Shown here piece after piece: positions 11,653 to 48,421 of a stretch of DNA of 64,000 nucleotides. The DNA lies in the NCBI GenBank assembly GCA_045586225.1, contig JAZMZX010000128.1:95-64094 (forward strand). The letters run 5' to 3'. How positions within the stretch are numbered: the first letter of the stretch is position 1; each line of letters begins with the position of its first letter. A program made the position numbers and the translations under genes. The DNA is from Eubacteriales bacterium. GTDB lineage: Bacteria; Bacillota; Clostridia; Oscillospirales; CAG-272. The notes beneath the pieces are model-generated. The model was not told the DNA's origin. It searched no databases and saw only the letters and a list, made by a program, of their open reading frames with translations.

Positions 11653-11681
11653 ATTATAGCACGCAGTCACTTGATTGTCAA
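11653..11681 (-). promoter_or_regulatory. Perfect consensus sigma-A promoter of the nfeD-SPFH operon
   Basis: On the minus strand: TTGACA (11681-11676), 17-nt spacer, TATAAT (11658-11653). About 45 nt upstream of the RBS aaaggagg. Confidence 0.7.
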
Positions 11682-11734
11682 GCGAATTCTGTAGAATTTT
11701 TGAAAATATTTTTTGAAAGCTCACGGGCAAATAA

Positions 11735-11772
11735 AATAACAAAAAACGCTCCCGGCAAAGCGGGAGCGTTTT
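11735..11772 (-). terminator. Intrinsic terminator of the M23 gene
   Basis: Stem aacgctcccg / cgggagcgtt (11745-11770) followed on the minus strand by a T-run. Confidence 0.7.
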
Positions 11773-11780
11773 CGCTTGTT

Positions 11781-29916: not shown

Positions 29917-30972
29917 ATGTTTTACACCACAGAAGAGTACATGAAGCTGCGCTTTGAGCGCTACGGCAGGCAGTGCGCATTCGGCGCCGCCACCGTTGAG
30001 GAGCACGAAAAATGGAAGGCAGAAACGAAAAAGCGGCTTGCCTCCGTTATCGGTGTTGACCGCGCTATCCCCGTTTCGGCTGCTCCCTCGCTTCTTGAGG
30101 AAAAGCGCTTTGAGGCAAATGAAAACGGTGGCGGCTTCACCGCCGAAAAATGGCTTCTTGAAACTGAGCCTACCGTGTTCATGCCATTCTGGCTTCTCAA
30201 GCCCGACGCGCCAAACGGCGCCGTGATGATAAATCCTCACGGCCACGGCGGTGGCAAGGACATTTATCTCGGCATCGGTCCCGAAAAAGCGCCTTTGCTT
30301 TCGGGCTCCCCCGAATCCTTCGGTGTGTCCCTTGCAAGACGCGGGTATTTCGTTGCCGCGCCCGATGCGAGAGGCGCAGGTGAGCGCCGCGAAAAGGGCC
30401 AGCAGGGTGCAGGCATGGAGGGAGGCTCCTCCCACAGAGAAATGCTGAACGCGGGTATATGCCTCGGCATCACCCCCATCGGCGGCATGGTGTGGGACAT
30501 TATGAAGCTCATCGACTTTCTCCTGACGGTGCCCGGGGTGGACCCCGCCCGCATCGGCTGCGGAGGAATGAGCGGCGGCGGCGCGCAGACCATCTACACC
30601 GCTGCCCTTGACGACAGAATTGCCCTCGCCGTCACGAGCGGATATTTCTACGGCTTCCGCGACGCCCTTCTGCTCCAGCCCGCAAACTGCGGCTGCAACT
30701 ATGCGCCCGGTCTTTACGAGGCTGTTGACATGGGCGATATCGGCGCCCTTATCGCTCCCCGTCCCTTCTATATCGAATCCGGACGAAACGACCACCTGAA
30801 CGGCGCCTCCGGCATTGAAAACGTTTATTCTCAGGTGAAGATAACGAAAGCGGCGTACACCCTTTTCAATAAGGAAGAAAATCTCCTCCACTCCGTCCAC
30901 GAGGGCGGGCATCAGTGGGTGGGTGAGGGACTTTTCGAATTCATCGACAAGCACCTTTCCCCGACAGAATAA
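29917..30972 (+). CDS. Alpha/beta hydrolase (esterase-like)
   Basis: 351 aa with nucleophile elbow GGMSGGG, an HGHGG oxyanion-like segment and a C-terminal HEGGHQW. No signal peptide. Confidence 0.6.
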   Translation: MFYTTEEYMKLRFERYGRQCAFGAATVEEHEKWKAETKKRLASVIGVDRAIPVSAAPSLLEEKRFEANENGGGFTAEKWLLETEPTVFMPFWLLKPDAPNGAVMINPHGHGGGKDIYLGIGPEKAPLLSGSPESFGVSLARRGYFVAAPDARGAGERREKGQQGAGMEGGSSHREMLNAGICLGITPIGGMVWDIMKLIDFLLTVPGVDPARIGCGGMSGGGAQTIYTAALDDRIALAVTSGYFYGFRDALLLQPANCGCNYAPGLYEAVDMGDIGALIAPRPFYIESGRNDHLNGASGIENVYSQVKITKAAYTLFNKEENLLHSVHEGGHQWVGEGLFEFIDKHLSPTE

Positions 30973-30993: not shown

Positions 30994-31035
30994 TATCCCC
31001 GACGTGAAAACTAACGTCGGGGATAACTTTTTTCT
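30994..31035 (+). terminator. Intrinsic terminator
   Basis: 12-bp stem tatccccgacgt / acgtcggggata followed by cttttttc. Confidence 0.75.
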
Positions 31036-31055: not shown

Positions 31056-31271
31056 ATGAGTTATTTTGAAAGCATCACTCCCGCCGCCGACGACGGACTT
31101 CCCGAAGGGCTCCTTATGGCATTCGCCGGCGACACCGACGCCTTCGTCCGCTTCACGAATCTGACGACGGAGGCGCAGGACGACCTGATAAAACGTGCGC
31201 GCTCCGTGAAAACGAAAAACGAGATGCGCCGCCTTATTGCATCTATCGAAAGCTCGCCGACCCTTATGTAA
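31056..31271 (+). CDS. Hypothetical 71-aa protein
   Basis: ORF only, with a weak RBS. Acidic N-half and basic helical C-half. No family recognised. Confidence 0.35.
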   Translation: MSYFESITPAADDGLPEGLLMAFAGDTDAFVRFTNLTTEAQDDLIKRARSVKTKNEMRRLIASIESSPTLM

Positions 31272-31327: not shown

Positions 31328-31365
31328 TGTTATAATGACTTGACGGCATTTCCGTCAAGTCATTA
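31328..31365 (+). promoter_or_regulatory. Extended -10 promoter overlapped by a 14-bp-arm perfect palindrome (operator candidate) upstream of the GH2 operon
   Basis: TGtTATAAT at 31328-31336. Palindrome TAATGACTTGACGG (31333-31346), loop cattt, CCGTCAAGTCATTA (31352-31365). ATG at 31387. Confidence 0.55.
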
Positions 31366-31386
31366 TTCATTTATAAGAGGTGTAAT

Positions 31387-34300
31387 ATGACCGAAAGAAC
31401 TCTTTTCTGTAACGGCTGGAGCTTCCGCGAAGCCCCCCTTGAAACAGCATACGAAGACGCTCTCAGCGGCGATTTTTATCCCGTTGAGATCCCTCACGAC
31501 TATATGATATACGACGTTAACGGCCTTTACCGCAACGGTGAGGGCTGGTACCGCCGCACCCTCTCGCTCCCGCAGGTGAAGGGCACGTACATCCTCCGCT
31601 TTGAGGGAGTATATATGAACTGCACCCTTTTCGTAAACGGAAAAGAGGCCTTCGAATGGAAATACGGATATTCCACCTTTGAAGCAGACGTAACTCCCTT
31701 CCTTAAAGAGGGCGACAATGAGATCGTTGTCCGCTGTGTATACCGCGACCCCAACACCCGCTGGTATTCGGGCGCAGGCATTTACCGCCGCGTGTGGCTT
31801 ATAAACGCAGGTGAAGACCGCATCCCCACCGACGGCGTGTATATCACAACGGAAAAGACCGAGGCCGGCTGGCGCGTTCTTGCGGATACCGATGTTATCG
31901 GAAGAGGAGAGGTCATATCCACCGTTCTCGATAAAGACGGAAACGTGCTCGGCACTGCCGTCGGCAGCTCCGTTTCAATTCCCGTTTCGGAGCCCCGTCT
32001 CTGGGACCCCGAGGATCCTTATCTTCACATCCTCAGAACAGAGCTCACCGTTGACGGCGAGACTGCGGACGTTATCGAGAACACCTTCGGCTTCCGCACC
32101 ATCCGCTTCGACACCGAAAAGGGCTTCTTCATCAACGGCAGAAACGTAAAGCTCCACGGTGTCTGCGAGCATCACGACAACGGCGCGCTCGGCACCGCCA
32201 TCAACAAGGCTGCCCTCCGCCGCAAGATCGAAAAGCTCATGACCATGGGTGTCAACTCTATACGTACGTCTCACAATATGCCCGCAACGGAGCTTCTTGA
32301 GCTCTCCGACGAAATGGGCATCCTCATCATCGACGAGGCCTTCGATATGTGGGAACACCCCAAAACCAAATACGACTACGCAAACTTCTTCCCTGCCTGG
32401 TATGAGCGGGACGTTGAATCCTGGATCACCCGCGACCGCAATCATCCCTCTGTTATTATGTGGAGCATCGGCAACGAGATTGGCGACACCACCAACGAGC
32501 GCGGCTATGAGGTGACGAAGATGCTCACAAATGCAGTGCGCCGCCACGACCCCAGACGCAATGCCGCTGTCACCATCGGCTCTAACCATATGAGAAGCGA
32601 ATGGGCGCAGAAGTGCGCGCTTGAGATCGACGCTGTGGGCTATAACTATGCGGAAAAGCTCTACAGCGAGCACCATGAAAAGTACCCCACCTACTGCATC
32701 TACGGAAGCGAGACCTCCTCAACGATACAGAGCCGCGGTATTTATCACTTCCCTCATGAGGATAAGTCCGTCAGCCACGCCGACCATCAGTGCTCCTCCA
32801 TATTCAACTGTACCACGTCCTGGGCTTCTCCCAACACCGAGTATAACATCACCCGCGACAGAGCTGCGGAGTTCTGTGCAGGTCAGTATATCTGGACGGG
32901 ATTCGACTACATCGGCGAGCCCACCCCCTACGACACCAAGAACTCCTATTTCGGTCAGATCGACACCGCAGGCTTCCCCAAGGATTCCTACTACGCATAC
33001 CGCGCCGAATGGACCGACGGCGAAAAATCGCCTATGATACATATCACCCCCTCCGTGTGGGACTTCAACGACGGCGAGATCATCGACGTTACCGTTCACA
33101 CAAACGCAGCCCGCTCCGAGCTTTATTTCAACGGCTCCCTTATCGGCAGCTTCGATCACGATCACACCGTCAGGGGAATGAAGATCTCCGAATTTTATAA
33201 GATCCCCTACGAAAAGGGCACGCTCACCGCTATCGCGTATGACAAAAACGGCAACGCCGTTGCAAAGGACGAGGTGAAGTCCTTCTCCGATCCTGCTGCG
33301 ATCATACTCGAGCCCGAAAAGACCGTTATCAACGCCGACGGACGCGACCTTTGCTACGTTGCCATCTCCACCGTCGATAAGGATGGCAATTTCGTTGGCA
33401 ACGCGCGCAACAGAATGAACGTGACCGTTTCCGGTGCCGGCAGACTCGTCGGCCTCGACAACGGCGACAGCACCGACTACGAGCCTTACAAGTGCACCTC
33501 ACGCCGTCTCTTCTCCGGCAGGCTCATGGCCATCATCGCCGCAACGGACAAGACGGGCGACATCACCCTTACCGTTTCCTCCCCCGCCATGCCCACGTCA
33601 TCCGTAACCGTCACCGCTGCGCCTGCAGAGGTGCCCGCAGGCATCGAGATAATCGACGAATGCAAGGCTTCCCCCGAGTATAACGAGATCCCGCTGCGCA
33701 AGCTTGAGCTTTCCGTCAAGGGATCGAAGACTCTCACGAAGGAATCCCCCTCCGCGGAGGTTACGATCAAGGCGTATCCCGAAAACGCCACGGTATCGGA
33801 CATTCACTATATGGCCTACGACCGCGGCATCCCCACCGACAATATCCTTATAGAGCCCACAGCGGACGGAATAAGGGTCACCGCACTTGCAAACGGTGAA
33901 TACCGCCTCCGCGTGTTCTCAAATAACGGCACCAAGTATCCCGCTATATATTCCGAGATCGTTTTCACCGCAGAAAACGTTTCCGAGCCCCGCCTCAACC
34001 CCTACAAGAACGTTGCCGCCATCTACGGCACCGACGAAGCGGCTGAGCACATCATGGAGGCTGAGGGAGGCATACGCTTCCCCGAGGCCGACGGCTATGC
34101 CGTTTTCCGCAGAGTAGACTTCGGAAGCGCCGGCACAGACGGCTTCGACATTACCCTTATGCGCACTCATATGGTGGATCTGCCCTTCTCCGTATACGAC
34201 GTAACTGACGGAAACGAGACCCTCATCGGCACCTTCGGCTTCACCGCAACGAACGTGTGGTGGGTATATTCCCATAACAGCTATAAGCTCACGGAAAAGC

Positions 34301-34719
34301 TTTACGGCATGCACGATCTCAAGTTCACGTTCTCGCGTCCTCTCGTATTCAGAGGCTTCAGATTCCACAAGATCAATCCTGCGTACGTGGGCATTCCCGC
34401 AGGCAGCTGCGACGTTATCTACGGCGACGACTACGACCGCCGCGACGGCGCCGTTTACAGCATCGGCAACAACGTGACCGTTGGATTCAAGGGCATTGAC
34501 CTTGAAGAGGGCGCCTCCTCCGTTACGGTTCGTGCAAAAACGAAAAACGAGGCCGATTCCATCCGTCTTCTTATCGGCGGTGATGCTTATGCCGTCAACT
34601 TTACGAAGGAAGACGAAGAGGTGACTGTTCCCGTGAACGCAAAGGGCACCGCCGACGTGGACCTCATCTTCCTGCCCGGCTGCAGCTTCGACCTCTTTGA
34701 GATCAGATTCAATAAGTGA
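31387..34719 (+). CDS. Glycoside hydrolase family 2 (beta-galactosidase-like), 1110 aa
   Basis: GH2 sugar-binding N-domain (WSFREAP, WYRR), TIM barrel NSIRTSHNMPA and WSIGNEIG, and long C-terminal beta-sandwich/CBM-like extensions. No signal peptide. Confidence 0.85.
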   Translation: MTERTLFCNGWSFREAPLETAYEDALSGDFYPVEIPHDYMIYDVNGLYRNGEGWYRRTLSLPQVKGTYILRFEGVYMNCTLFVNGKEAFEWKYGYSTFEADVTPFLKEGDNEIVVRCVYRDPNTRWYSGAGIYRRVWLINAGEDRIPTDGVYITTEKTEAGWRVLADTDVIGRGEVISTVLDKDGNVLGTAVGSSVSIPVSEPRLWDPEDPYLHILRTELTVDGETADVIENTFGFRTIRFDTEKGFFINGRNVKLHGVCEHHDNGALGTAINKAALRRKIEKLMTMGVNSIRTSHNMPATELLELSDEMGILIIDEAFDMWEHPKTKYDYANFFPAWYERDVESWITRDRNHPSVIMWSIGNEIGDTTNERGYEVTKMLTNAVRRHDPRRNAAVTIGSNHMRSEWAQKCALEIDAVGYNYAEKLYSEHHEKYPTYCIYGSETSSTIQSRGIYHFPHEDKSVSHADHQCSSIFNCTTSWASPNTEYNITRDRAAEFCAGQYIWTGFDYIGEPTPYDTKNSYFGQIDTAGFPKDSYYAYRAEWTDGEKSPMIHITPSVWDFNDGEIIDVTVHTNAARSELYFNGSLIGSFDHDHTVRGMKISEFYKIPYEKGTLTAIAYDKNGNAVAKDEVKSFSDPAAIILEPEKTVINADGRDLCYVAISTVDKDGNFVGNARNRMNVTVSGAGRLVGLDNGDSTDYEPYKCTSRRLFSGRLMAIIAATDKTGDITLTVSSPAMPTSSVTVTAAPAEVPAGIEIIDECKASPEYNEIPLRKLELSVKGSKTLTKESPSAEVTIKAYPENATVSDIHYMAYDRGIPTDNILIEPTADGIRVTALANGEYRLRVFSNNGTKYPAIYSEIVFTAENVSEPRLNPYKNVAAIYGTDEAAEHIMEAEGGIRFPEADGYAVFRRVDFGSAGTDGFDITLMRTHMVDLPFSVYDVTDGNETLIGTFGFTATNVWWVYSHNSYKLTEKLYGMHDLKFTFSRPLVFRGFRFHKINPAYVGIPAGSCDVIYGDDYDRRDGAVYSIGNNVTVGFKGIDLEEGASSVTVRAKTKNEADSIRLLIGGDAYAVNFTKEDEEVTVPVNAKGTADVDLIFLPGCSFDLFEIRFNK

Positions 34720-34767: not shown

Positions 34768-37700
34768 ATGGCAAATAACGAGTTTGTTTACATCAGAAAC
34801 GAAAAAGACTGTCATCCCGAAAACGTGTTCGGGCAGTACCGCACGGAGGACTGGGTCAGCGCAGGCCGCTGGCCGCTTATCGAAGGTGTCCCTGCGGGCA
34901 CCTGGGGCGTGCACGAGGATTATAAGACCTATTACAGCTATGCCGAGGGCTCGCCGCTGGCACACACAAAAACCGTTTTCACGGATTTTGACTATCTTAT
35001 CACGGTCCAGTTCACAAGCGAGGGCTGTGCGGATATCGTTTTCCGCATGACGGACGAGAAGAATTACTATTTTCTCAGGCTCGACACTCCGTCACGCTCC
35101 GCCTCCTTTGGCAAATGCGTGAACGGCAGCATCTTCATCGAAAGCACCGTAAGCTTTGAGCTGGAGCTTGTGACCTGCACCCACGTCCGCATCATCGCCG
35201 ACGGCGACCGCATTCTGACAAAGGTGCAAAACGATAAGGAAGCCAGCTATTTCCGCAATGAAAATCCCGGCGTAACCGTTGCCGACGTCAAGGACAGCAC
35301 CTTCCGCAGCGGTGTCTGCGGCATTATCGCAGGCGGCACGGGCGTTTCCTTCAACAACTCCTCCGTCGTTGACATTTCGAAGGACATCGTTATCGAAAAC
35401 GATCTTTTCCACGTTGTCACCGGTGTGTACGGCGAGATCAAATCGCTGAAGCTGAAAAACGAGCCCTACGACACGAACTTCGTCACAAACGAATCCGAGC
35501 ACCGCTACGAGCTGGGAGCAGACCAGTTCCTGGGTGAGATGAAATTCAACTGCACCGTAAACGGCGAGACCTTCGACGTCACCACCGGCAGCTCTGCCGA
35601 CGTGAGGACGGTCCGCAAGCTTACAGACTCCTCAATCGCCGTTGATTACAGCGGGGATTCCGCAGGCAGTCACGGCATCCGCGGAAAGAGCGCATTTTCC
35701 ATTTCCGAAAAATACACACTCGAGGACGATCATTTAAGATTTGACATCACGCTGAAAAACACCTCGGGCACCGACGTGATCTTCAACGACATCTGCCTTC
35801 CCATCTCATGGAACAACCACTGGCAGTTTGAATCGCCCTACGAAAGATACCTTGCGGCAACGGACAATTTTATCTCCTACGACGCATCGTATCTTGTGCT
35901 TGAGCGCGCGATGGGCGGCGGAAACAAGCTCGTGTTCACGCCCGACCCCGCAACAAACACGGCGCTCGAATACCGCAGCCTCCGCTCCACCCAGATCACC
36001 TGGGCAAATCCCCCGGAGCATTATTACATAAAGAGCAAGGCGGCAAACAAGGGCAAGCACAGCTACCTTGAGAGCTCCTCTCTCACGCTGCCCGCAGGGG
36101 AATCGGTAAGCTATTCGTTCCTGCTCCACAAGATCGGCAACGATATGGCGGAGCTCGGAGAGCTTCTCTACCGCGAAGGGCTCCTTGACATAAAGGTGCT
36201 CCCCGGCATGATATTCCCCACGAATATGACCGCCACCGTCAGCATCAGAACAAAGCACCCCGTCTCAAGGCTGACGGCATCCGACCCCGGAGCCGTAGTC
36301 AGATCCGTGAGCGAGGGGAACGACCGCTACGTTTACGAGCTTGAATTCACAAAGCTGGGCAGAAACGACGTTACCATCCACTATGGCAGCGGCAAGCGCG
36401 GAGTGATCCAGTTCTGGACAGAGGAGCCTCTCGACCGCGCCATCAGGCGGAGAGTCGATTTCCTCATTGAAAACTGCCGCATCACAGATGAGAACGACCC
36501 GCACTGCTACAGCTTCCTTGAATGGGATAACGTTTCAAACACCGCAAAGCTCGGCGGAAACAAATGCAGCAACAACGACTTTGAGCAGATGTACGACGGA
36601 CCTGCCTTCATTCTCGAAAAGCAGGTGTACGCTCCCGTTCAAAGCGAGATCACCGTGGTTGACGATTATCTCACGAAGCTTGTGTGGGAGAAGGAAGTGA
36701 TCCACGGCGGCGAATACGACGGCTATCTTTGCCACAAGTGCTGCGAGGGCCGCTGCTGGAGCGATCCCTTCCCTGCAGCCGAGCCCTACCTCTGCACACG
36801 CGGATACAACTATCCGAGAATGTATAATTCCTTCTACTCCATGTATAAAACGGCGAAGCGCTATCCGAAGCTGAAGTATTACTGGGGAGCGGCAGAGTAC
36901 CTTTCCGCAGCGGCACTCATTCTCCGTGCATGCCTGAAGCTGGAGCCCTGGGTCGGTCTTATGGGCGAGCAGACGGTCCCCGACATTATCGACGCGCTGA
37001 AAAAAGAAGGCATGGCTTCCATCGCAGACGAAATATTCGAGCTGTCGATCAACAAATGCGAGACTATGAACAGCCAGGCTTATCCCTTCGGCTCGGAATT
37101 CGGTACAGACAGCACAGGCGAGGAAGGCGCATACTTCTTCTCAAAAATGGGCGGCAACAGGCACGCAATGGACGTTACCATAAACAAATCCGTTGCATGG
37201 ACGGGCAAGGTGCCCGTGTGGTACTGGCAGACAACGGGCAACCGTCAGGACATGGAATGGTGGCTCTTCCAGTACACGGTGGGTCTGCACGGAAGAATAT
37301 TCCACGATTATTATATGAACGTGGTCGAAAACGGCAGCGACGAATGGGCATTCGTTTACCCCTTCAAGCTTTCTCCCTTCGCCCACATCAATTCAGGTCA
37401 GCCCGAATGCATCGGCAAGGTGGGCACAAACTGGGGCAACTATCACTCCTCATTCGTTTACGATTGGGACCACGGCTTCCCCTACAGCGAATCCGCCGAA
37501 TCCGACATTTCTCTCTGGGCAGGACTTCAGCTCCTCTCAGCAGACCTTGTGACCTGCCACCCCACCTTCGGTCTTTCCGCCTGGGGCTGCGAGGTCACCG
37601 AATCCGAAGACGCCTACGGCATCACCCCTCTCGACGGACTGTTCCGCAGGCTCAATATCGTGGATAAAAAGCTTTCGGTAGTCTTTGAAACGGACTCCTA

Positions 37701-37923
37701 TTCCTTCGCCGGAATCGGCAAAAACGGCAGGTCTCTCTCCTTTGAGCTTACGAAGACGGAGGGCACCGACGGCGGATACGTCACCGTCAACGGCCTTGAC
37801 GGCGGCAGCTACCGCATCACCTGCGACGGCGAGGAGCAGGGCATCGTAACCGTCAGCGGCACCGCCGAGATCCGATACACCTTAAAGGGTGAAAAAGGAA
37901 CTCTCGTGATAACAAAAATATAA
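34768..37923 (+). CDS. 1051-aa protein of unknown function with N-terminal concanavalin/LamG-like jelly-roll
   Basis: Single uninterrupted ORF with codon usage like its neighbours and RBS aaggga. The N-terminal ~190 aa (ADIVFRMTDEKNYYFLRLD, IIADGDRILTKV) resemble DUF1080/LamG-type modules. The remaining ~850 aa are not recognised. Confidence 0.6.
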   Translation: MANNEFVYIRNEKDCHPENVFGQYRTEDWVSAGRWPLIEGVPAGTWGVHEDYKTYYSYAEGSPLAHTKTVFTDFDYLITVQFTSEGCADIVFRMTDEKNYYFLRLDTPSRSASFGKCVNGSIFIESTVSFELELVTCTHVRIIADGDRILTKVQNDKEASYFRNENPGVTVADVKDSTFRSGVCGIIAGGTGVSFNNSSVVDISKDIVIENDLFHVVTGVYGEIKSLKLKNEPYDTNFVTNESEHRYELGADQFLGEMKFNCTVNGETFDVTTGSSADVRTVRKLTDSSIAVDYSGDSAGSHGIRGKSAFSISEKYTLEDDHLRFDITLKNTSGTDVIFNDICLPISWNNHWQFESPYERYLAATDNFISYDASYLVLERAMGGGNKLVFTPDPATNTALEYRSLRSTQITWANPPEHYYIKSKAANKGKHSYLESSSLTLPAGESVSYSFLLHKIGNDMAELGELLYREGLLDIKVLPGMIFPTNMTATVSIRTKHPVSRLTASDPGAVVRSVSEGNDRYVYELEFTKLGRNDVTIHYGSGKRGVIQFWTEEPLDRAIRRRVDFLIENCRITDENDPHCYSFLEWDNVSNTAKLGGNKCSNNDFEQMYDGPAFILEKQVYAPVQSEITVVDDYLTKLVWEKEVIHGGEYDGYLCHKCCEGRCWSDPFPAAEPYLCTRGYNYPRMYNSFYSMYKTAKRYPKLKYYWGAAEYLSAAALILRACLKLEPWVGLMGEQTVPDIIDALKKEGMASIADEIFELSINKCETMNSQAYPFGSEFGTDSTGEEGAYFFSKMGGNRHAMDVTINKSVAWTGKVPVWYWQTTGNRQDMEWWLFQYTVGLHGRIFHDYYMNVVENGSDEWAFVYPFKLSPFAHINSGQPECIGKVGTNWGNYHSSFVYDWDHGFPYSESAESDISLWAGLQLLSADLVTCHPTFGLSAWGCEVTESEDAYGITPLDGLFRRLNIVDKKLSVVFETDSYSFAGIGKNGRSLSFELTKTEGTDGGYVTVNGLDGGSYRITCDGEEQGIVTVSGTAEIRYTLKGEKGTLVITKI

Positions 37924-37935: not shown

Positions 37936-38865
37936 ATGAAAAACGGACAGTATTTATACGACACGAACGGAGATCTTCTCCACGCTCACGGCGGCTATAT
38001 CATCCGTCACGGTGAATTCTGGTACTGGTACGGCGAGGACAGAACGGGCGACAATTACGTTTCCTGCTACCGTTCCGCTGACCTGCACACCTGGGAATTC
38101 CGCAACCATATCCTCACCACCAAGAGCAAAACGGAGCCCTACCGCGTGCGCACCGGCCTTAAGCTTACAGCGGACGTTTTCGACCTTATCTCCAAAAAGA
38201 AAAAGGTGAATATCGAGCGCCCCAAGGTGCTTTACTGCGAAAGAACGGGCAAGTTCGTTATGTGGGCGCACTACGAAAACGGCAAGGACTATAACGATGC
38301 CGCCGCCTGCATCGCCACCTGCGACACTCCCGACGGCGATTTCACCTATCACGGCCACTTCAATCCCTACGGATATATGAGCCGCGACTGCACACTCTTC
38401 CTTGACGACGACGGCACCGCATATTTTATCTCTGCCGCGCGCGACAATGCAGACCTTCACGTTTACCGCCTTGCAGACGACTATATGAACGTGGATAAGC
38501 TTGTGAACATCCTCTTCCAGGGTGAATACAGAGAGGCTCCCGCCGTATTCAAGAAAAACGGCAAATACTATATGCTCTCCTCCTTCTGCACGGGCTGGGC
38601 TCCCAATCAGGGCTGCTTCTCCGTGGCAGACTCCATGGACGGAAAATGGTCGCTTCTCGAAAACTTCGGCGACCGCACCACCTTCTATTCTCAGCCCGCC
38701 TTCGTTTTACCCGTTGACGGTGAATTCTACTACGTTGGCGACCGCTGGGGCGATCCCTTCACCCGTCCCTTCGACTACTATAAGTCCACCTACGTGGTGC
38801 TTCCCATTCAGTTCACGGAGGACGGTAAGCCCTATATCGAATGGAACGACAACGCCCCCATATAA
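37936..38865 (+). CDS. Glycoside hydrolase family 43-like five-bladed propeller
   Basis: LLHAHGGYIIRHGEFWYWYGEDR, ERPKVLY, SRDCTLFLDDDGTAYFI and REAPAVFKKNGKYYML. The AHGG...YWYGE signature recalls GH43 exo-beta-1,3-galactanases (subfamily assignment from memory). Confidence 0.7.
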   Translation: MKNGQYLYDTNGDLLHAHGGYIIRHGEFWYWYGEDRTGDNYVSCYRSADLHTWEFRNHILTTKSKTEPYRVRTGLKLTADVFDLISKKKKVNIERPKVLYCERTGKFVMWAHYENGKDYNDAAACIATCDTPDGDFTYHGHFNPYGYMSRDCTLFLDDDGTAYFISAARDNADLHVYRLADDYMNVDKLVNILFQGEYREAPAVFKKNGKYYMLSSFCTGWAPNQGCFSVADSMDGKWSLLENFGDRTTFYSQPAFVLPVDGEFYYVGDRWGDPFTRPFDYYKSTYVVLPIQFTEDGKPYIEWNDNAPI

Positions 38866-38898: not shown

Positions 38899-40665
38899 AT
38901 GAAGATCAGATTTTCGGTGATTCTTTCCCTTGTGCTCTCCCTTATGCTCCTTTTGCCCACGTTCACCGTTTTCGTTTCAGCCGATTCTTACGTAAGTCAG
39001 TCGGCGGCAGGCGAGAGGGTGATACGCGAGGGCGTGCCCGAGCACTGGCAGAGCAAAAAGGGCTACGTGGGCTTCTACACCAAGCACATTATGGTCTACG
39101 GCATCCCCGTGCTCTCCACCGATGACGTTGAGGACTGGATACTGTACCGCGCCTACGACGTGCTTGAGATCTACCTGCGCAAGATATACCTTGAATACCC
39201 CGAGATCATCGCCACGATGATCAAGAACAAGGCAAACGTTATCGTTATCGGTGCTCACGAGTACAACATCGACCACCCCGACTGGACCGCTTCACAGCAG
39301 GCAATGGGCGAGGCAGGCAAAACCGAGCGCCGCGGCGGCGGCGGTCTTGCCACCACCGTTCTTGTGGACGACCTGGGCATACAGGACCCCAACAACTGGT
39401 TCTCCGATTTCTGCGGTCTTATCCATGAGTTCAGCCACACGATGCTCTCCTACGGCATCGGTGACGCAGATAACGCAGGCGCCCGCCCCGACATATACGA
39501 AAAGATCAACACCGCATACGAGGCCGCATACCGCGAATACGTGAAAAACGGCAAGTATAAGGAATCCTCTTACGATATGAACAACTACCACGAGTATTTC
39601 ACAGGTCAGGCAGGCCGTTGGTTCAACGCAAACGGAACAAATCTGAAGGTGAAGCACGTTGCGGAAAAGACGGAGCGCGAGCAGCTGAAGGAATACGACC
39701 CTGCGATTTACGAGGTCTGCGAAATGCTCTTCGGTGAGTATGACGTTATCGCGCCCTGGGGTACCGGCACAGACAGCAAGCTCAACGAAAACGAAACGAT
39801 CGTTGATTATTCTCCTCTGTACGGAGCATTCTCCTCTCTCTCCGCTCTCGATTCCACCATGTTTGAGTCCGGGCACGATAAGCTGGAGACGGCGCTCACC
39901 TCTGCCCGCGATGCTCTCGCATCGGGTACGTTGGATGCAGAGGCTGTTGAAGCTGAGCGAAGAAAGCTTATGAGTGTGCTCTCCGAGCTGACACCTGCCG
40001 AAGGAAACCTCGCATACTTCGCCTCCCCCTCCACCACCTTCGTTTCCGAGTGGGAATCCATCGCCGCCGTGAACGACGGAAAATGGACGAAGAAATCAGG
40101 CGATTCCTCCATCCCCCACTACGGCTCCTGGGGCAACAGAAGCGCCTCCGAAACGGTGACCTACACCTGGTCCGTTCCCGTTACTCTCACCTCCTCGGAC
40201 CTTTACATCTGGACCGACAACTACACCACCAACTCCAACATCGCCATCCCCTCCTCATACCTCTATGAATATCTTGGCGAGGACGGAGAATGGCATGCTG
40301 TGACGGGAGCAGACGATTACTCCGTTCTCAGAGAACGCGAGGGCGGCAAAAAGGCCAATATCGACGGCTTCAACCTGACAAACTTCGACGAGATCACCAC
40401 CACCGCATTCAGAGTGACGCTTTTCAAATCCTCCACCGCCGATTACGGCGTGGGAATCGTTGAGTGGCGCGTTTACGGTGAGTTTGCTGAAATCATTTCC
40501 GAAGCCCCGGAAAGCGACTCCGTTGACACCACCGCACCTGCCGACACCGACGGAGAAGAAAAGGGCGGATGCGGCTCCGCGCTCAGCGCGGTACCCGTGG
40601 TTCTTGCGTTCCTTGCCGCTGCACCTGCCGCGGCAAAGCGACAGAAACCGAAAAAAACCAAATAA
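38899..40665 (+). CDS. Secreted HExxH protein with discoidin/CBM-like domain and C-terminal hydrophobic-basic anchor
   Basis: Signal peptide MKIRFSVILSLVLSLMLLLPTFTVFVSA, putative zinc site LIHEFSHTM and a CBM-like module ending VGIVEWRVYGE. Tail GGCGSALSAVPVVLAFLAAAPAAAKRQKPKKTK. Confidence 0.6.
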   Translation: MKIRFSVILSLVLSLMLLLPTFTVFVSADSYVSQSAAGERVIREGVPEHWQSKKGYVGFYTKHIMVYGIPVLSTDDVEDWILYRAYDVLEIYLRKIYLEYPEIIATMIKNKANVIVIGAHEYNIDHPDWTASQQAMGEAGKTERRGGGGLATTVLVDDLGIQDPNNWFSDFCGLIHEFSHTMLSYGIGDADNAGARPDIYEKINTAYEAAYREYVKNGKYKESSYDMNNYHEYFTGQAGRWFNANGTNLKVKHVAEKTEREQLKEYDPAIYEVCEMLFGEYDVIAPWGTGTDSKLNENETIVDYSPLYGAFSSLSALDSTMFESGHDKLETALTSARDALASGTLDAEAVEAERRKLMSVLSELTPAEGNLAYFASPSTTFVSEWESIAAVNDGKWTKKSGDSSIPHYGSWGNRSASETVTYTWSVPVTLTSSDLYIWTDNYTTNSNIAIPSSYLYEYLGEDGEWHAVTGADDYSVLREREGGKKANIDGFNLTNFDEITTTAFRVTLFKSSTADYGVGIVEWRVYGEFAEIISEAPESDSVDTTAPADTDGEEKGGCGSALSAVPVVLAFLAAAPAAAKRQKPKKTK

Positions 40666-40680: not shown

Positions 40681-40716
40681 ATTGCCGACACACAAAATGT
40701 GTCGGCAATTTTTATT
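40681..40716 (+). terminator. Intrinsic terminator of the glycan operon
   Basis: 12-bp stem attgccgacaca / tgtgtcggcaat followed by ttttt. Confidence 0.8.
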
Positions 40717-40746: not shown

Positions 40747-40775
40747 TTGACACCGCCCCCTTTCGGCGGTATAAT
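40747..40775 (+). promoter_or_regulatory. Perfect consensus sigma-A promoter of the surface-glycopolymer operon
   Basis: TTGACA (40747-40752), 17-nt spacer ccgccccctttcggcgg (itself a ccgcc/ggcgg inverted repeat), TATAAT (40770-40775). Confidence 0.7.
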
Positions 40776-40805
40776 TAGCATAGTATTAAAAATCGGGGTG
40801 TGACG

Positions 40806-42224
40806 ATGAGAGAACAGTTTTCACGTCTCCATCTCGGCGGAAAGGTCTCCGTATTCGTTTTCGTCATCACCGCGATCCAGCCGTTTATGGACGTTATTTC
40901 GTATTTTTGCATAAGCTTCGGCGACGGAAATACTCCGCTTTTCCTCCGCGGACTTTTGCTCACCGCTATTCTCGCGGCAGGCTGCGCGGCTTCGGAAAGC
41001 AAGCGGCTTTACCTCATCATGGCGGCGATGCTGTTTTCCCACGCCGCCCTGCACCTGACGGCAGCCACCATCATATACGGTCTTTCCGTGGAGGAGCTTG
41101 TCTCCGATGCATCCAATCTCATAAGGATATATTCGTTTCCCATAACGGCAGCTTCATTTGTTTCCCTTTTGAAAAGGGAGCCGGAGGCCGTCCGCAGCGC
41201 CGAAAGGGGCGCCCTCTCCGCGCTTTTCGTCATCGTTTTCGTTGAGGCGCTTGCCGTTATCACGGGGACAGACCCGCACTCCTACCCAAACAAGGCTATC
41301 GGGGTGCTCGGCTGGTTTTACTTTGCAAATTCCCAAAGCGCCATTCTTTCGATGCTTTATCCAATCGCGCTGATCTCAGCCCTCACCTGTCGGCGGCGCA
41401 GAGCCTTCGCCGTCACCCTGAGCGCGGGGGGCGCCGCGCTCTTTTTCCTTGCAACGAGGCTTGCGTATTTTTCCCTTGTGTTCACGCTCTCGCTCCTTGC
41501 GGCAGTGTGCCTTTATCTGAGCAAAAGGCGTGGCGCGCCGCTGAAAAAAACGGCTCTCATCCTTGCCGCCGCGCTCTTTTTGTCTGTGGCGGCGCTTCCT
41601 GCCTCACCAATGGCGGAAAACATCAGGCAAACGGGCCAAAATGCCGTGAAAAAGCAGGAGCACATCGATTCTCTTGCCGAGTCAGGCGGCACCCGCGCCG
41701 TGTACGCACACTATCTTCCCGCGCTGGTCGACCGCTTCGGCTTTCGGCGCACCGAAAGCCTCTATGGAGGCTCCACCCGTGTGGACGACGTTTGCGACGT
41801 GAGGCGGATGAAGATAGCATACTGCCGTCTTTTAACGGAGGACTTCCCCGCCGCCGCCATCGCAGGCCACCCAATAAGCGAGATGACTCACGGAGGCAAA
41901 AACCACGACGTTGAAAACGACCTTAACGGTATATTCTACCTGACGGGAGCCTCGGGGCTGTGCCTTCTTTTATCCTTTTTCCTGTATTTCGCTTTTCGCA
42001 TCCTGCGCTTTTTGCTCCGGGACCGGGGAAAGGCAATATCGCTGCGCCGTGCGGCGTATATTTCCTCGCTTCTTTTCGGATGCATGCACGCATACTTCAC
42101 CGCAGGGGTGCTCCGCCGTCCCAATGCAAGCTTTTTCTTAGCGCTCACCCTGGCGCTTATTTATTCCGAAACAAACAAAAGAAACACGAAAGGTACCGCT
42201 TATGATGAAAACGGAAGCTTTTGA
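40806..42224 (+). CDS. O-antigen ligase/polymerase-like polytopic membrane protein (copy 1)
   Basis: At least 10 helices. Wzy_C-like segment NSQSAILSMLYP...TRLAYFS and C-terminal HDVENDLNGIFYLTGASGL. Start is ATG 40806 or GTG 40800. Paralogue of the next gene. Confidence 0.5.
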   Translation: MREQFSRLHLGGKVSVFVFVITAIQPFMDVISYFCISFGDGNTPLFLRGLLLTAILAAGCAASESKRLYLIMAAMLFSHAALHLTAATIIYGLSVEELVSDASNLIRIYSFPITAASFVSLLKREPEAVRSAERGALSALFVIVFVEALAVITGTDPHSYPNKAIGVLGWFYFANSQSAILSMLYPIALISALTCRRRRAFAVTLSAGGAALFFLATRLAYFSLVFTLSLLAAVCLYLSKRRGAPLKKTALILAAALFLSVAALPASPMAENIRQTGQNAVKKQEHIDSLAESGGTRAVYAHYLPALVDRFGFRRTESLYGGSTRVDDVCDVRRMKIAYCRLLTEDFPAAAIAGHPISEMTHGGKNHDVENDLNGIFYLTGASGLCLLLSFFLYFAFRILRFLLRDRGKAISLRRAAYISSLLFGCMHAYFTAGVLRRPNASFFLALTLALIYSETNKRNTKGTAYDENGSF

Positions 42225-43689
42225 ACCGAATACTCTCATAAGGCATTTGCCGCAGGCGGTGTACGTCCTTTTCGTTATCCAGCCCGTGATGGACGTTATC
42301 TCCTATTTCACGGCAAAGCTCGGCGTGTCAAACGCCCCCACCCTTGCCCTCCGCCTTCTCGTGCTCGCTGCCACCGTTTCCGTGGGCTTTGCGGTCTCAA
42401 AAAGAAGAACGATATATTACACCGCCGCCGCGGTGGCTCTCATTATCGGCGCGGGTCACGTATTCGCTTCCCTTCAGTTTGGCTACGCCGACCCCTTCGG
42501 CGACCTGACGAATTACGTCCGCGTGCTGCTCATGCCCTTCACCGCCATCGCTCTCATATCGGCAATGAAGGCAAACAAGGCTGCCTACGAGGCTCTGAAA
42601 AAGGCTATGGTCACAGTGCTCTTCATCATCATTGCCGTGGAGCTTGCCGCCTCCGTCAGCGGCACAGAGCCCCACACCTATGCCGACGGAGAGGGCTTTA
42701 TCGGCTGGTTTGCAAACACAAATTCTCAAAGCGCCATACTCACCGCTGCTGCACCCGTTGCGGTTTTATACGTTTACGAAAAGAAGGGCTGGCGAAGCCT
42801 TCACTTTATTGCCACCCTTATTTTGGCATGCCTTGCGCTCTCTCTTTTCGGCACGCGGCTTTGCTATGCGGGCATGGCGGCAATGACGCTGGGTCTTGCC
42901 GCGTCTATTATCATTATCCGCCCGAAAAACTGCCTCCGTGCCCTTTCATTTATTTTTGCCGCTGTGCTCTTCACGTGCGCGATACCGCTCTCGCCTATGG
43001 TGAGACATCAGACGAAATATAACGATTTTCAGTCGGAGCGGCAGGAAAACGTGGATAACATCCTTTCACGCCCTCCTGCATCCGATACGTCCCAGGAAAG
43101 CGCCCCCGCAGAGCCCGACAGCGGCACCGACACCGCTCCCACGAAAAAAGAGCTTATCGAAAGACTCACTCCCATATATGAGTTTTACGCTGCCGATTTC
43201 GTTGCCATCTTCGGAATTGAAGAAACTATAGAAATGTTCGATTACACCAGCGACATTTATAAGATCACGGCAACGCGCCCGAAAAAGCTTATTTTCGCTC
43301 AGCTTCTGATGGAAAACTCTCCGCCCTCCTCTCTCTTTTTCGGCATTGAGCTTTCAAGATTCACAGTGGACGACGCAATATACGACGTTGAAAACGATCT
43401 GCACGGCATCTACTATCTTTACGGTGCCGTGGGTCTTGCCGCCATGCTTGCCTTCATCGGATATTTCATTTATCTCATAGGGGAAGCCCTCGTCCGCGAC
43501 AGAAGGCGCTACTTCACACTTGATGCTGCCGCCTGGGGCATTTCCCTCGTTATGTGTCTCGGCCACGTATACTGCACCGCAGGCGTGCTGCGCCGACCGG
43601 GCGCATCCGTTTACCTTGCCGCCATCCTCGCCGCCGTTTACTTTCTGACGCGGATCGCGGATAAAGAAGAAACGGAGGCAGTCCGATGA
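42202..43689 (+). CDS. O-antigen ligase/polymerase-like polytopic membrane protein (copy 2)
   Basis: Shares IQPVMDVISYF, NSQSAILTAAAP, TRLCYAG, YDVENDLHGIYYLYGAVGL and GVLRRPGAS with copy 1. Has an extra Ser/Asp/Thr-rich loop. Confidence 0.5.
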   Translation: MMKTEAFEPNTLIRHLPQAVYVLFVIQPVMDVISYFTAKLGVSNAPTLALRLLVLAATVSVGFAVSKRRTIYYTAAAVALIIGAGHVFASLQFGYADPFGDLTNYVRVLLMPFTAIALISAMKANKAAYEALKKAMVTVLFIIIAVELAASVSGTEPHTYADGEGFIGWFANTNSQSAILTAAAPVAVLYVYEKKGWRSLHFIATLILACLALSLFGTRLCYAGMAAMTLGLAASIIIIRPKNCLRALSFIFAAVLFTCAIPLSPMVRHQTKYNDFQSERQENVDNILSRPPASDTSQESAPAEPDSGTDTAPTKKELIERLTPIYEFYAADFVAIFGIEETIEMFDYTSDIYKITATRPKKLIFAQLLMENSPPSSLFFGIELSRFTVDDAIYDVENDLHGIYYLYGAVGLAAMLAFIGYFIYLIGEALVRDRRRYFTLDAAAWGISLVMCLGHVYCTAGVLRRPGASVYLAAILAAVYFLTRIADKEETEAVR

Positions 43690-44660
43690 GATTTTCCGTT
43701 ATCGTCCCCGTTTATAACACGGCTTCATATCTGCCCCTTGCCATAGATTCCGTTCTTGCAAACGACACCTCATCGGCTGAGGTCATCATCGTTGACGACG
43801 GCTCCACAGACTCCCTTTGCCCCGCCATTTGCGACGGATATGCAGAAAGGCATCCCGACCTCGTCCGCGTTATACATCAGGAAAACAGAGGCCTCGGCGG
43901 CGCGCGGAACAGCGGCCTTGAGGCAGCCCGCGGCGACTACGTTATTTTCCTTGATTCCGACGACGAGCTTGCGCCTGATGCGCTGGCAAGGCTCGCCGCC
44001 GCCATTGACGAAGCCGAAGCAGACGTGATCATTTTCGGAATGGCGAAGCTTCTTCCCGACGGCACCCGCCGTCCCGTGGAGGATATTCACCTTCCCGCGG
44101 GCACGTTCACAGCAGAGTCTGTGCCCGAAGTGCTCACCTCCCTTCCCGGTGCCTGCAATAAGGCATGGCGCCGAGAGCTTTTCTCATCTTCGGGCATATC
44201 ATTCCCTCCGCGCGCTCTATACGAGGACCTGCGCACCACGCCGAAGCTCCTTGCTTTATCCGGATCCGCAGCCGCTATCGGCGATCACCTGTATCTTTAC
44301 AGAGAGCGGGAGGGCTCCATTATGAGCTCTGCCTCCCTTTCAAGAGCCCACGAGATCATCGACGCATTCGACGACCTGCTCCGCTGGTTTTCCCGCCGCT
44401 CACTTTCGGAAAGGTATGCCGCCGAGCTTGAAAAGCTCTCCATCGACCATCTTCTCATTGCCGCCACCGTCCGCGTGGCAAGGTGCGACCCGCGCTCGCC
44501 GCTGCTTTTAAGGCTGCGGGAATACATGCAAAAGCACTTTCCCGGATACAGAAGCAATCCCTATATCTCCTCGCTCCCCCGACGCCGCAGGCTGATACTC
44601 CGGCTGGCGGAGCACAAGCGCTACAGACTGATAAAGCTTATCTTTGACCTGAAAGGATAA
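43686..44660 (+). CDS. Family 2 glycosyltransferase
   Basis: FSVIVPVYNTASYL, VIIVDDGSTDS and LDSDDEL (DxD) motifs. ATGA overlap with the upstream gene. Confidence 0.85.
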   Translation: MRFSVIVPVYNTASYLPLAIDSVLANDTSSAEVIIVDDGSTDSLCPAICDGYAERHPDLVRVIHQENRGLGGARNSGLEAARGDYVIFLDSDDELAPDALARLAAAIDEAEADVIIFGMAKLLPDGTRRPVEDIHLPAGTFTAESVPEVLTSLPGACNKAWRRELFSSSGISFPPRALYEDLRTTPKLLALSGSAAAIGDHLYLYREREGSIMSSASLSRAHEIIDAFDDLLRWFSRRSLSERYAAELEKLSIDHLLIAATVRVARCDPRSPLLLRLREYMQKHFPGYRSNPYISSLPRRRRLILRLAEHKRYRLIKLIFDLKG

Positions 44661-44685
44661 CCACCGCAGAAAGGAGGCGAGAGCC

Positions 44686-48253: not shown

Positions 48254-48421
48254 GTATTCTCCGAAAAATCAAATAGTGTGATCCCTTTTGCTTAATGTTA
48301 TTTTACATTTTCCGCGCACCGGTGTCAAGGTGGGATAAAGACGAAAAAAGTATTTTAATCCGTGATAAAGTATGATACAATAATAAGGTAACGTATGTCC
48401 AGGAAGAAAGGAGGCCGAAAC

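Follow-up and report, generated by a model that had tools for sequence, protein, structure and literature searches.

What does the 1051-residue protein encoded between two glycosidase genes do, and is it, as a preliminary description of the sequence proposed, a candidate for a new family of glycoside hydrolases, lyases or phosphorylases? The gene is the second of a four-gene operon in the window (the whole stretch of 64,000 nucleotides that was analyzed), preceded by a gene for a GH2 β-galactosidase and followed by genes for a GH43_24-type exo-β-1,3-galactanase-like protein and a secreted HExxH protein, Table 1. As described, the ORF is real and the second largest of the cluster, exceeded by GH2 (1110 aa); full-length orthologs of 1046-1060 aa (62-73% identity) can be aligned from residue 1, so that both start and length are right. 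Codon usage was said to resemble that of the neighbors and indeed a GC3 of 0.716 compares with 0.70-0.72 in the three co-operonic genes and FtsK/YceG (0.65-0.72 across all genes compared), with codon frequencies that correlate with those of the operon neighbors at r = 0.83-0.91. No signal peptide is present in the N-terminus, MANNEFVYIRNEKDCHPENVFGQ, again in agreement with what had been reported.

Table 1. Positions in the window of the gene of interest, its domains and conserved loop residues, and the surrounding features.
Feature	Positions	Strand	Remarks
Upstream α/β-hydrolase, weak CE15/AXE1 similarity	29917..30972	+	syntenic in orthologous loci
Palindrome, 15-bp arms, overlapping TATAAT, just upstream of GH2	31332..31366	.	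candidate promoter/operator
Operon gene 1, GH2 β-galactosidase-like	31387..34719	+	C-terminal CBM6, no signal peptide
Operon gene 2, DUF5695 / PL27-related enzyme	34768..37923	+	complete ORF, ATG start, 1051 aa plus stop
aa 1-66	34768..34965	+	low model confidence; W29, G33, W35, W46, G47 conserved in close orthologs
aa ~70-202, β-jelly-roll, CBM66 / DUF1080 (PF06439)-like	34975..35373	+	Foldseek, weak PF06439
aa ~205-552, all-β (galactose-mutarotase-like) sandwich	35380..36423	+	homologous to PL27 N-terminal β-sandwich
aa ~555-922, (α/α)6 barrel, 12 helices	36430..37533	+	putative catalytic domain; model, conservation
Barrel loop residues W586/D587	36514-36540	+	conserved
Barrel loop residues R678/Y682/Y693	36799-36846	+	conserved
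Barrel loop residues E777/D781/E786	37090-37125	+	conserved
Barrel loop residues R826/Y836	37219-37275	+	conserved
Barrel loop residues E911/D913	37486-37518	+	conserved
aa ~925-1050, C-terminal β-sandwich	37540..37917	+	absent from 694-aa PL27; D956/G957 conserved
Operon gene 3, GH43_24-type exo-β-1,3-galactanase-like	37936..38865	+	309 aa, no signal peptide
Operon gene 4, secreted, membrane-anchored protein	38899..40665	+	588 aa, HEFSH motif, no family match
GC-rich hairpin, then TTTTATTT	40681..40709	.	terminator-like operon end

Beyond the N-terminal ~190 residues, the remaining ~850 had been thought to resemble nothing nameable. This is not the case, since Pfam DUF5695 (PF18951) matches aa 226-838 with 186.6 bits (E=8.5e-55; gathering cut-off 25.2 bits), as it does all 28 of the 28 relatives aligned. 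The family is thus an existing one, with ~1600 clusters (50% identity) passing E<=0.001, and it contains the characterized PL27 enzymes, which themselves score as DUF5695. A profile built from 28 diverse DUF5695 members retrieves PDB 5NO8/5NOK (BACCELL_00875; E=1.4e-32, ~570 residues) and hhalign against a PL27 alignment gives a probability of 99.9% (E=3e-33, 552 columns). BACCELL_00875 is a characterized PL27 L-rhamnose-α-1,4-D-glucuronate lyase, with a fold made up of an N-terminal β-sandwich and an (α/α)6-barrel and with arabinogalactan proteins as its target glycan class (PMC8377490). The confident match to a characterized CAZy family, which the preliminary description had set against novelty, is therefore found at the level of profile and fold but not at that of sequence: identity to PL27 is 13-19%, a PL27-only HMM of 694 positions aligns over 115 of them with a score of 30 bits, and pairwise BLASTP reaches 34.7 bits (217 aa, 21% identity). 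Using the single sequence, phmmer found no match in the PDB at E<=1 and a search of NCBIfam gave nothing useful, while a second homolog search with the diverse alignment as query returned the same close relatives and no others. A literature search for DUF5695/PF18951 found no characterization. The sole characterized branch of the family is that of the PL27 lyases, which uncap the side chains of plant arabinogalactan proteins, and for this reason the 1051-residue protein is related, if divergently, to enzymes of a known kind and does not represent a wholly new family. Published dbCAN/CUPP annotations assign PL27 in Paenibacillus and Penicillium, so that CAZy PL27 is wider than Bacteroides.

In an AlphaFold model (pLDDT 82.5, pTM 0.83) the chain folds into four domains: from the N-terminus, a jelly roll like that of CBM66/DUF1080, a β-sandwich, an (α/α)6 barrel and, at the C-terminus, a second β-sandwich. 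A Foldseek search of such a model for an (α/α)6 or β-helix domain had been suggested, and it is the barrel that is found; the top match of the full model is 5NO8 (E=6.5e-25, target-normalized TM 0.78, 765 columns), which is again the top match when a barrel-only model is used. The LamG/DUF1080 likeness claimed for the N-terminal ~190 residues is real but weak by sequence (PF06439 on aa 60-198, E=0.0072 and 16.8 bits, under the 26.8-bit cut-off); the same domain is scored in relatives at 43-47% identity, and Foldseek superimposes it on CBM66 4B1M with a target-normalized TM of 0.66 and an rmsd of 2.3 Å at 21% identity. Judging from the model, there is little doubt that this is a carbohydrate-active enzyme whose catalytic domain is an (α/α)6 barrel, and this much of the original proposal stands, with a lyase among the options that it named. 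The novelty of the family does not. Nor is a phosphorylase likely, given that the relatives sharing 47-50% identity and the domain order are secreted multidomain proteins with CBM6/35/32. Membership of two other families was considered and rejected: for GH94/GH65 there is no Pfam or PDB sequence match, Foldseek TM values are below 0.3 and close relatives are secreted, and for GH127 there is no PF07944 match at E<=1 and the resemblance in fold is remote.

Membership of DUF5695, fold and homology to PL27 are thus established, and the pattern of conservation is equally clear. Six residues, N331, N349, R678, Y682, Y693 and E777, are kept both among ~130 diverse representatives of the family and among 120 PL27 sequences. 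The two asparagines belong to the β-sandwich, N349 in a WNNHWQ loop (nt 35809-35850), Y693 is in helix 4 of the model, and R678, Y682 and E777 occupy long inter-helix loops or their ends, which puts them on one face of the barrel. R678/Y682/Y693/E777 correspond to R447/Y451/Y462/E537 of PL27. All three of the Trp/Tyr/acidic motifs that had looked conserved could be located (aa 348-361, 583-591 and 818-836), and they include some of the most conserved DUF5695 columns. Other positions argue against a PL27-like reading. The PL27-invariant H586, H594 and H612 are replaced by Tyr, a gap and Gln, respectively. The DUF5695 core keeps D781, E786, E911 and D956 almost without exception; PL27 has Gln/Glu and Pro at the positions aligned with D781 and E786, while E911 and D956 lie past its alignable part. 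Because the last third of the barrel does not align significantly by itself with the PL27 C-terminus (hhalign, E=0.22), the equivalences of Y836 with Y613 and of E911/D913 with D679/D681 are only suggestions from sequence. The catalytic apparatus of PL27, described by Munoz-Munoz in 2017, reportedly consists of a tyrosine acting as base, with partner residues, in the pocket of the barrel; papers on PL42 are silent on the catalytic residues of PL27.

The composition of the operon has likewise been established and the position between a GH2 and a GH43 is as first described, here a β-galactosidase and a GH43_24-type exo-β-1,3-galactanase in an arabinogalactan-directed operon. The GH43 protein matches 3VSF (E=7.4e-75) as well as 7BYS and 5FLW, and since it is 35% identical to a GH43 adjoining Bacteroides PL27, which neighbors GH43 genes there, the GH43/PL27-type pairing is the same in both. 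A search for related loci using the close-ortholog alignment gave 7 from genomes and 2 from metagenomes. The order of the operon is kept where the DUF5695 ortholog is 70-73% identical, and at the locus of a 64% ortholog there is a CE15 gene within the operon and a β-glucuronidase-like GH2 nearby. In our window the upstream α/β-hydrolase gene is closed by a terminator-like hairpin at 30994-31025 and is probably on a separate transcript. Downstream, at 40800-47081, are O-antigen-ligase-like, GT2, flippase and glycerophosphotransferase genes, separated from the operon by a terminator-like hairpin and a consensus σ70 promoter. Relatives of the protein are fused to CBMs (CBM35 in one of them) and to SGNH esterase domains, one more distant DUF5695 member has a dockerin, and relatives are found in loci for sugar import that also encode LacI and ABC transporters; the loci of two others, P0024 and P0045, gave no information. 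The 588-aa gene of the window and a 578-aa gene that adjoins the ortholog at one related locus (L001) are unrelated, and the CE15-like esterases of the two loci show marginal mutual similarity (E=1e-4, 74 aa).

Our preferred reading, held tentatively and at somewhat below even chances, is that the protein is a cytoplasmic enzyme of the DUF5695/PL27 six-hairpin superfamily that decaps arabinogalactan oligosaccharides through PL27-like β-elimination at a 4-O-substituted glucuronate; its substrate, chemistry and the roles of individual residues we infer as follows. Co-transcribed with the two galactosidase genes, the DUF5695 enzyme would target imported type-II arabinogalactan (arabinogalactan-protein) oligosaccharides and strip a non-galactose cap off β-1,6-galactan side chains, so that both galactosidases could finish the degradation. 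The substrate would bind in the central pocket of the barrel, which the β-sandwich would close with its WNNHWQ loop; Arg678, found throughout the family, would neutralize the uronate carboxylate, H-5 would be abstracted by a family-wide tyrosine, Tyr682 or Tyr693, and β-elimination would expel the 4-O-linked sugar, which may be L-rhamnose, the sugar released by PL27, or else an L-arabinofuranosyl unit. The uronate theme in the gene context (the CE15-like esterase upstream, CE15 and the β-glucuronidase-like GH2 at the 64% ortholog, the CBM35 fusion) is counted in favor of this reading. A point against a lyase is that the window ORFs that were scanned include no GH88/GH105 unsaturated uronyl hydrolase.

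A close rival, because relatives repeatedly adjoin GH127 or GH51, is a glycoside hydrolase of the same fold and niche, which we consider possible if on the improbable side. Here E777 with D781, E786 or E911 would serve as acid/base and an L-arabinose-containing unit, possibly β-L-Araf-capped, would be freed from the glycans of arabinogalactan proteins or extensins; secreted relatives would correspond in function to the GH121 β-L-arabinobiosidase feeding GH127, and the 1051-residue protein a cytoplasmic version that de-arabinosylates β-1,6-galacto-oligosaccharides. A secreted DUF5695 protein together with LacI, an ABC importer and GH127 recurs in four lineages (L003, L012, L013 and L018), one of them an actinobacterium at 28% identity, and GH51-type genes adjoin DUF5695 in L017 and L021; that the neighbors in six other lineages are GH127 or GH51-type arabinofuranosidases, not uronate enzymes, argues against a PL27-like reading. 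The hydrolase is favored as well by the near-invariant acidic residues of the core, of which D781 and E786 are not kept in PL27, by the loss of the three PL27 histidines, by an operon that would be self-sufficient without GH88/GH105 and by the fold of the barrel plus C-terminal β-sandwich, which after PL27 comes closest to that of GH127 HypBA1. However, the sole characterized homologs are lyases with which R678, Y682, Y693 and E777 are held in common, the CE15 and β-glucuronidase associations of the closest cytoplasmic clade point to uronates, and a lyase that frees arabino-oligosaccharides from 4-O-substituted GlcA would also explain the adjacency of GH127. For the DUF5695 core clade, our protein included, we see a chance, if less than an even one, that it is not a rhamnose-glucuronate lyase and has a distinct, previously undescribed activity on plant hydroxyproline-rich glycoprotein glycans; this would take the form of a hydrolase arisen on a lyase scaffold or of a lyase clipping arabino-oligosaccharides off 4-O-substituted glucuronate.

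The envelope-polysaccharide genes that directly follow the operon, and that adjoin it in L006 and L007 too, could mean that the bacterium remodels or recycles its own cell-surface polysaccharide rather than plant glycans. We find this decidedly unlikely, as a terminator-like hairpin and a promoter lie between the two gene sets, GH43_24 and PL27 are signature enzymes for arabinogalactan proteins, the loci of relatives are ones for sugar import, and the GH2, DUF5695 and GH43 proteins are all cytoplasmic. A binding or scaffold protein without catalytic activity, or a role unrelated to carbohydrates, would fit with a CBM-like N-terminal domain and with a core activity that is predicted only, but is very improbable given the concentration of invariant polar and aromatic residues on the barrel's loop face in ~1600 sequence clusters, the operon shared with two glycosidases and the fusions to CBMs and SGNH esterase domains. 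Scarcely credible is a cytoplasmic glycoside phosphorylase of GH94/GH65-like architecture (β-sandwich, (α/α)6 barrel, β-sandwich), for which the lack of a signal peptide and the presence of GH94 and GH65 in the Foldseek list (E~1e-8 to 1e-4) might be cited. These matches, with TM below 0.3, have rmsd values above 20 Å, GH94 drops to E=0.07 in the barrel-only search and the true homolog is PL27; moreover, glycoside phosphorylases are not expected outside the cell, to which the relatives with CBMs are directed, and the more distant member carries a dockerin.

The 1051-residue protein is, then, a real and well-conserved carbohydrate-active enzyme of DUF5695 with a reaction that is predicted, in a family whose known biochemistry is that of three closely related Bacteroides PL27 lyases only. 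It represents the DUF5695 core: two domains are additional, the conserved acidic residues form a different set, and the operon is clearly an arabinogalactan one. Once pinned down, its reaction would tell how Clostridia strip side-chain caps from arabinogalactan proteins (gum arabic, wheat, larch AGP), dietary fibers of prebiotic interest, would explain the recurring pairing of DUF5695 and GH127 genes, and would permit hundreds of genes labeled 'DUF5695 / six-hairpin glycosidase' to be annotated by function. A distinct activity of the core clade, if true, would, together with ABC importers and GH127/GH51, make up a previously unrecognized pathway of Firmicutes and Actinobacteria and would deserve a CAZy family or subfamily of its own.

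Neither the protein nor its operon is a fundamentally new type of system. In Bifidobacterium longum the HypBA2 (GH121) locus combines a secreted multidomain enzyme, LacI, an ABC importer and a cytoplasmic GH127. The loci of the secreted DUF5695 relatives bear a functional analogy to it and nothing further, as GH121 gives no sequence or fold match; in our case the protein is cytoplasmic and the window ORFs scanned contain no GH127. GH127 (HypBA1, BT3674) has a Cys/Glu, Zn-dependent catalytic apparatus and is the second-best fold for the barrel and C-terminal part (E 3e-6 to 1e-4, query-normalized TM ~0.4), with rmsd values above 11 Å and no sequence-level match; it is a frequent genomic partner of DUF5695, not a family-level homolog. 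The likeness to CBM66/DUF1080 (PF06439, the '3-keto-disaccharide hydrolase' fold) is confined to the N-terminal domain; 4B1M is the CBM66 of B. subtilis, and the founding CBM66 binds fructans. The nearest known system is PL27 (BACCELL_00875 = PDB 5NO8/5NOK, BT0263, BACFIN_07013). In contrast to the ~690-aa two-domain secreted architecture of PL27 (694 aa, with signal peptide), our protein of 1051 aa is cytoplasmic, has a CBM66-like domain and a C-terminal β-sandwich in addition, and does not conserve His586, His594 and His612. The two nevertheless belong to the same Pfam family, with homologous β-sandwich and (α/α)6 barrel and with N331, N349, R678, Y682, Y693 and E777 in common; both are encoded next to GH43_24-type exo-β-1,3-galactanase genes, and both would act on the same class of glycans, the arabinogalactan proteins, a target that is known for PL27 and predicted here.

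The protein encoded at 34768-37923 (+) belongs to the Pfam family DUF5695 (PF18951), which covers residues 226-838 with a score of 186.6 bits (E=8.5e-55, cut-off 25.2), so that the statement in the preliminary description that the C-terminal ∼850 residues resemble nothing recognisable must be abandoned. The ORF is genuine, with an ATG start and 1051 codons plus a stop, and the gene model is sound since orthologs of 1046-1060 aa (62-73% identity) can be aligned across the entire protein. As had been noted, a hydrophobic signal sequence is absent from the N-terminus and codon usage is host-like (GC3 of 0.716 vs 0.70-0.72 for co-operonic genes and FtsK/YceG; codon-frequency correlation with the operon neighbours of r=0.83-0.91). 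The three motifs quoted earlier are found at residues 348-361, 583-591 and 818-836 and take in some of the most conserved columns of DUF5695. A search of NCBIfam gave only an insignificant best match (E=0.09) and a single-sequence search of the PDB gave none. Exhaustive HMMER searching of 1.84 billion cluster representatives returned 1602 relatives with E<=0.001, of which 214 have E<=1e-30. Giant multidomain proteins are numerous among the relatives, and the common core corresponds to query residues ∼200-1045.

A profile built from an alignment of 28 diverse DUF5695 members matches a single solved protein, BACCELL_00875 (5NO8/5NOK, E=1.4e-32), over chain residues 30-599 of 694. Three CAZy PL27 L-rhamnose-α-1,4-D-glucuronate lyases have been characterised, of which this is one. 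In these enzymes, which free the rhamnose cap from gum-arabic-type arabinogalactan proteins, a β-sandwich at the N-terminus is followed by an (α/α)6 barrel at the C-terminus (PMC8377490). The PL27 sequence passes the DUF5695 threshold (34.9 bits) and PF18951 is present in the large majority of the 120 listed PL27 homologs, the few that are named at source going under 'DUF5695 domain-containing protein' or 'six-hairpin glycosidase'. When the DUF5695 set and a PL27 alignment are compared profile to profile (probability 99.9%, E=3e-33, 552 columns, 17% identity), residues 210-831 of our protein map to PL27 residues 25-599. DUF5695 thus represents in Pfam a superfamily of which PL27 alone, as one branch, has been characterised, and the window protein is a member of the uncharacterised core. 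Over HMM match columns it shares 13-19% identity with PL27 (median 17%) and 20-55% with other DUF5695 representatives (median 25%), which are ∼35% identical among themselves and ∼18% to PL27. Pairwise BLASTP against one PL27 protein gives 34.7 bits, and an HMM made from 108 Bacteroidales PL27 sequences scores 30 bits on the window protein, at model positions 263-377 only, and up to 79 bits on the other representatives. CAZy PL27 is itself wider than Bacteroides, as published dbCAN/CUPP-based annotations in Paenibacillus and Penicillium indicate.

An AlphaFold2 model computed from the 28-member alignment (pLDDT 82.5, pTM 0.83) divides the protein as listed in the table, and the (α/α)6 catalytic barrel that the preliminary description had suggested looking for is predicted. 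Foldseek places 5NO8/5NOK first in the PDB (E=6.5e-25, target-normalised TM 0.78, 765 columns, 14% identity), followed by GH94, GH101 and GH116 (E∼1e-7 to 1e-8, TM <0.3). The N-terminal jelly roll resembles CBM66 (4B1M; target-normalised TM 0.66, rmsd 2.3 Å, 21% identity), in agreement with a sub-threshold PF06439/DUF1080 match (E=0.0072) and with the scored PF06439 domains that relatives of 43-47% identity carry, and the earlier guess of a DUF1080-type fold is borne out. For a second model, of the barrel and C-terminal domain alone (pLDDT 86, pTM 0.91), the first match is again PL27 (E=8.9e-7, query-normalised TM 0.53) and the second GH127 HypBA1 (E 3e-6 to 1e-4, query-normalised TM ∼0.4), with PL33 and GH9 thereafter. 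PL27 terminates at the barrel end, and hence has neither the CBM66-like domain nor the C-terminal sandwich. The suggestion of a new enzyme family therefore survives in part: a carbohydrate-active enzyme with a predicted (α/α)6 barrel in an arabinogalactan operon is what we find, but the family already exists in Pfam and includes CAZy PL27.

Features of the window protein (residues, AlphaFold2 model) and of the operon boundaries (nucleotides of the window)
Feature	Position	Remarks
N-terminal segment	aa 1-66	modelled at low confidence
β-jelly roll	aa ∼70-202	
All-β sandwich	aa ∼205-552	
(α/α)6 barrel	aa ∼555-922	twelve helices
C-terminal β-sandwich	aa ∼925-1050	
Terminator-like hairpin	30994-31025	after upstream α/β-hydrolase
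Perfect palindrome, 15-bp arms	31332-31366	ATAATGACTTGACGG...CCGTCAAGTCATTAT; overlaps TATAAT, 20 nt before GH2 start
GC-rich hairpin + T-run	40681-40709	3' of 588-aa gene
Consensus σ70 promoter	40747-40775	TTGACA-17-TATAAT; beyond GC-rich hairpin

Conservation was counted over 284 sequences aligned to the family HMM. N331, N349, G531, W/Y586, R678, Y682, M692, Y693, E777 and P816 are common to the DUF5695 core and PL27; D587, N681 and R826 are conserved in PL27 and variable in the core; and P479-G480, S776, D781, T783, E786, Y819, Y836, Y864, E911 and D956 are near-invariant in the core only. In the barrel, the conserved residues are mostly located within, or at either end of, the long loops joining helices 1-2, 3-4, 7-8, 9-10 and 11-12, and in the model they share one face, the usual catalytic face among six-hairpin enzymes, while Y693, Y711 and Y864 sit instead within helices 4, 5 and 11. 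The conservation pattern points to a functional pocket, partly common to PL27. Beyond its low identity, the window protein differs from the characterised PL27 enzymes in its two additional domains, its cytoplasmic location and an altered set of pocket residues. The positions of the invariant PL27 histidines H586, H594 and H612 (PL27 numbering) are taken in it by Tyr, a gap and Gln.

The hairpins, the palindrome, the σ70 promoter and the tight intergenic gaps (13-49 bp) define an operon of GH2, DUF5695, GH43 and a 588-aa gene, for which the palindrome is a candidate operator/promoter. Its GH2 is β-galactosidase-like (7CWD and 4YPJ, E∼1e-153 to 1e-156) with an attached CBM6, and its GH43 resembles exo-β-1,3-galactanases (3VSF, E=7.4e-75; also 7BYS and 5FLW), which we take to be the type classed as GH43_24; a signal peptide was sought in both and found in neither. 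The order esterase/GH2/DUF5695/GH43/574-576-aa gene is kept at three other loci (L006, L007 and L010) whose DUF5695 orthologs are 70-73% identical to ours. Between esterase and GH2 lies a 71-aa ORF (31056-31271, +); L006 and L007 have a 68-76-aa gene in the equivalent position. The 588-aa protein (38899-40665, +) has a signal peptide, a C-terminal hydrophobic anchor, a basic tail and a zinc-protease-like HEFSH (HExxH) motif at residues 176-180, and gave no significant match in Pfam, NCBIfam, PHROG or the PDB; orthologs (72-75% identity) hold the same operon place at all three loci. A role as a surface protease acting on glycoproteins is conceivable. Directly beyond the operon (40800-47081, +) are two tandem O-antigen-ligase-like genes, a GT2, a Wzx-type flippase and a CDP-glycerol glycerophosphotransferase; ORFs 44686-45951 and 45630-47081 overlap by ∼320 nt, so that one start is probably mis-set. 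Farther on, a 1008-aa ORF (48395-51421, +) is unassigned apart from a weak match to DUF5722 at aa 468-593, and a GH35 β-galactosidase (56670-58418, -, E=6e-114) is another galactan-related enzyme of the window.

In a Bacteroides locus, the neighbours of PL27 are a pair of GH43 genes, an HTCS regulator and SusC, and one of these GH43 proteins is 35% identical to that of the window (E=9e-53). The pairing with GH43 is thus conserved across phyla, which links the window protein with the degradation of type-II arabinogalactan. Uronate-related neighbours recur. The hydrolase upstream in the window has a weak CE15 likeness; at L001, the locus of a 64% ortholog, AP_endonuc_2 TIM-barrel (xylose-isomerase-like) and CE15 glucuronoyl-esterase-like genes follow DUF5695 in a same-strand, tightly spaced tandem (L001:13207-15159), with a β-glucuronidase-like GH2 (7XYR, E=3e-128) 5 kb away; and one DUF5695 relative bears a CBM35. 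Arabinose is the other theme. Secreted relatives with the same N-to-C domain order (38-50% identity) adjoin GH127 β-L-arabinofuranosidase genes, LacI and a sugar ABC importer also adjoining in the annotated flanks of L003/L009 and L013 and the same importer being found at L008; the arrangement is repeated for a Tat-secreted actinobacterial member of 28% identity (L018/L019). DUF5695-GH127 adjacency occurs in four lineages including the actinobacterium (L003, L012, L013, L018/L019), and also at L008 and L023, with DUF5695 proteins that are mostly secreted and often giant. At L012, from an Oscillospiraceae MAG, the DUF5695 match (10001-13045, 50% identity) lacks a long ORF, which marks it as a pseudogene with frameshifts or else as a product of faulty assembly. 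GH51-type genes accompany DUF5695 at L017 and L021; the ABC-transporter locus of the latter, with its GH51 arabinofuranosidase, also encodes a 929-aa DUF5696 (PF18952) protein (L021:3799-6588), and DUF5696 is a further uncharacterised family, which may work with DUF5695.

The subfamily of the window protein is biochemically uncharacterised, and we tentatively favour a β-elimination like that of PL27, directed at a 4-O-substituted glucuronate that caps oligosaccharides from arabinogalactan side chains, in which Arg678 would neutralise charge, Tyr682 or Tyr693 would serve as base and a Rha or L-Araf unit would leave. This reading draws on the one reaction so far described for the family, and it accounts for the Arg/Tyr/Tyr/Glu set in common with PL27, for the pairing with GH43 and for the links to CE15, β-glucuronidase and CBM35. 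The main rival, a hydrolase that uses the core-specific carboxylates to release arabinose-containing units, is a serious possibility that we rank second, given the lost PL27 histidines, the additional acidic residues, the arabinofuranosidase genes nearby and an operon that would then be self-sufficient. The GH127 loci can also be explained by elimination: α-(1→4)-linked arabinofuranose is reported in gum arabic (PMC13259613), and a lyase would make neutral arabino-oligosaccharides available for import while the unsaturated uronate stays on the polymer. No GH88 or GH105 was found among the window ORFs scanned; this is weak evidence, as none occurs within 10 kb of the Bacteroides PL27 locus either.

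That the operon remodels the cell's own surface polymer is improbable in view of its enzyme types and of the terminator and promoter boundary beyond it, and a glycoside phosphorylase is more improbable still, close relatives being secreted and carrying CBMs. With no more than the tentative confidence given to elimination, a distinct activity of the DUF5695 core may feed a DUF5695-ABC-GH127 pathway; the DUF5695-LacI-ABC-GH127 loci resemble the GH121-ABC-GH127 extensin system of Bifidobacterium.
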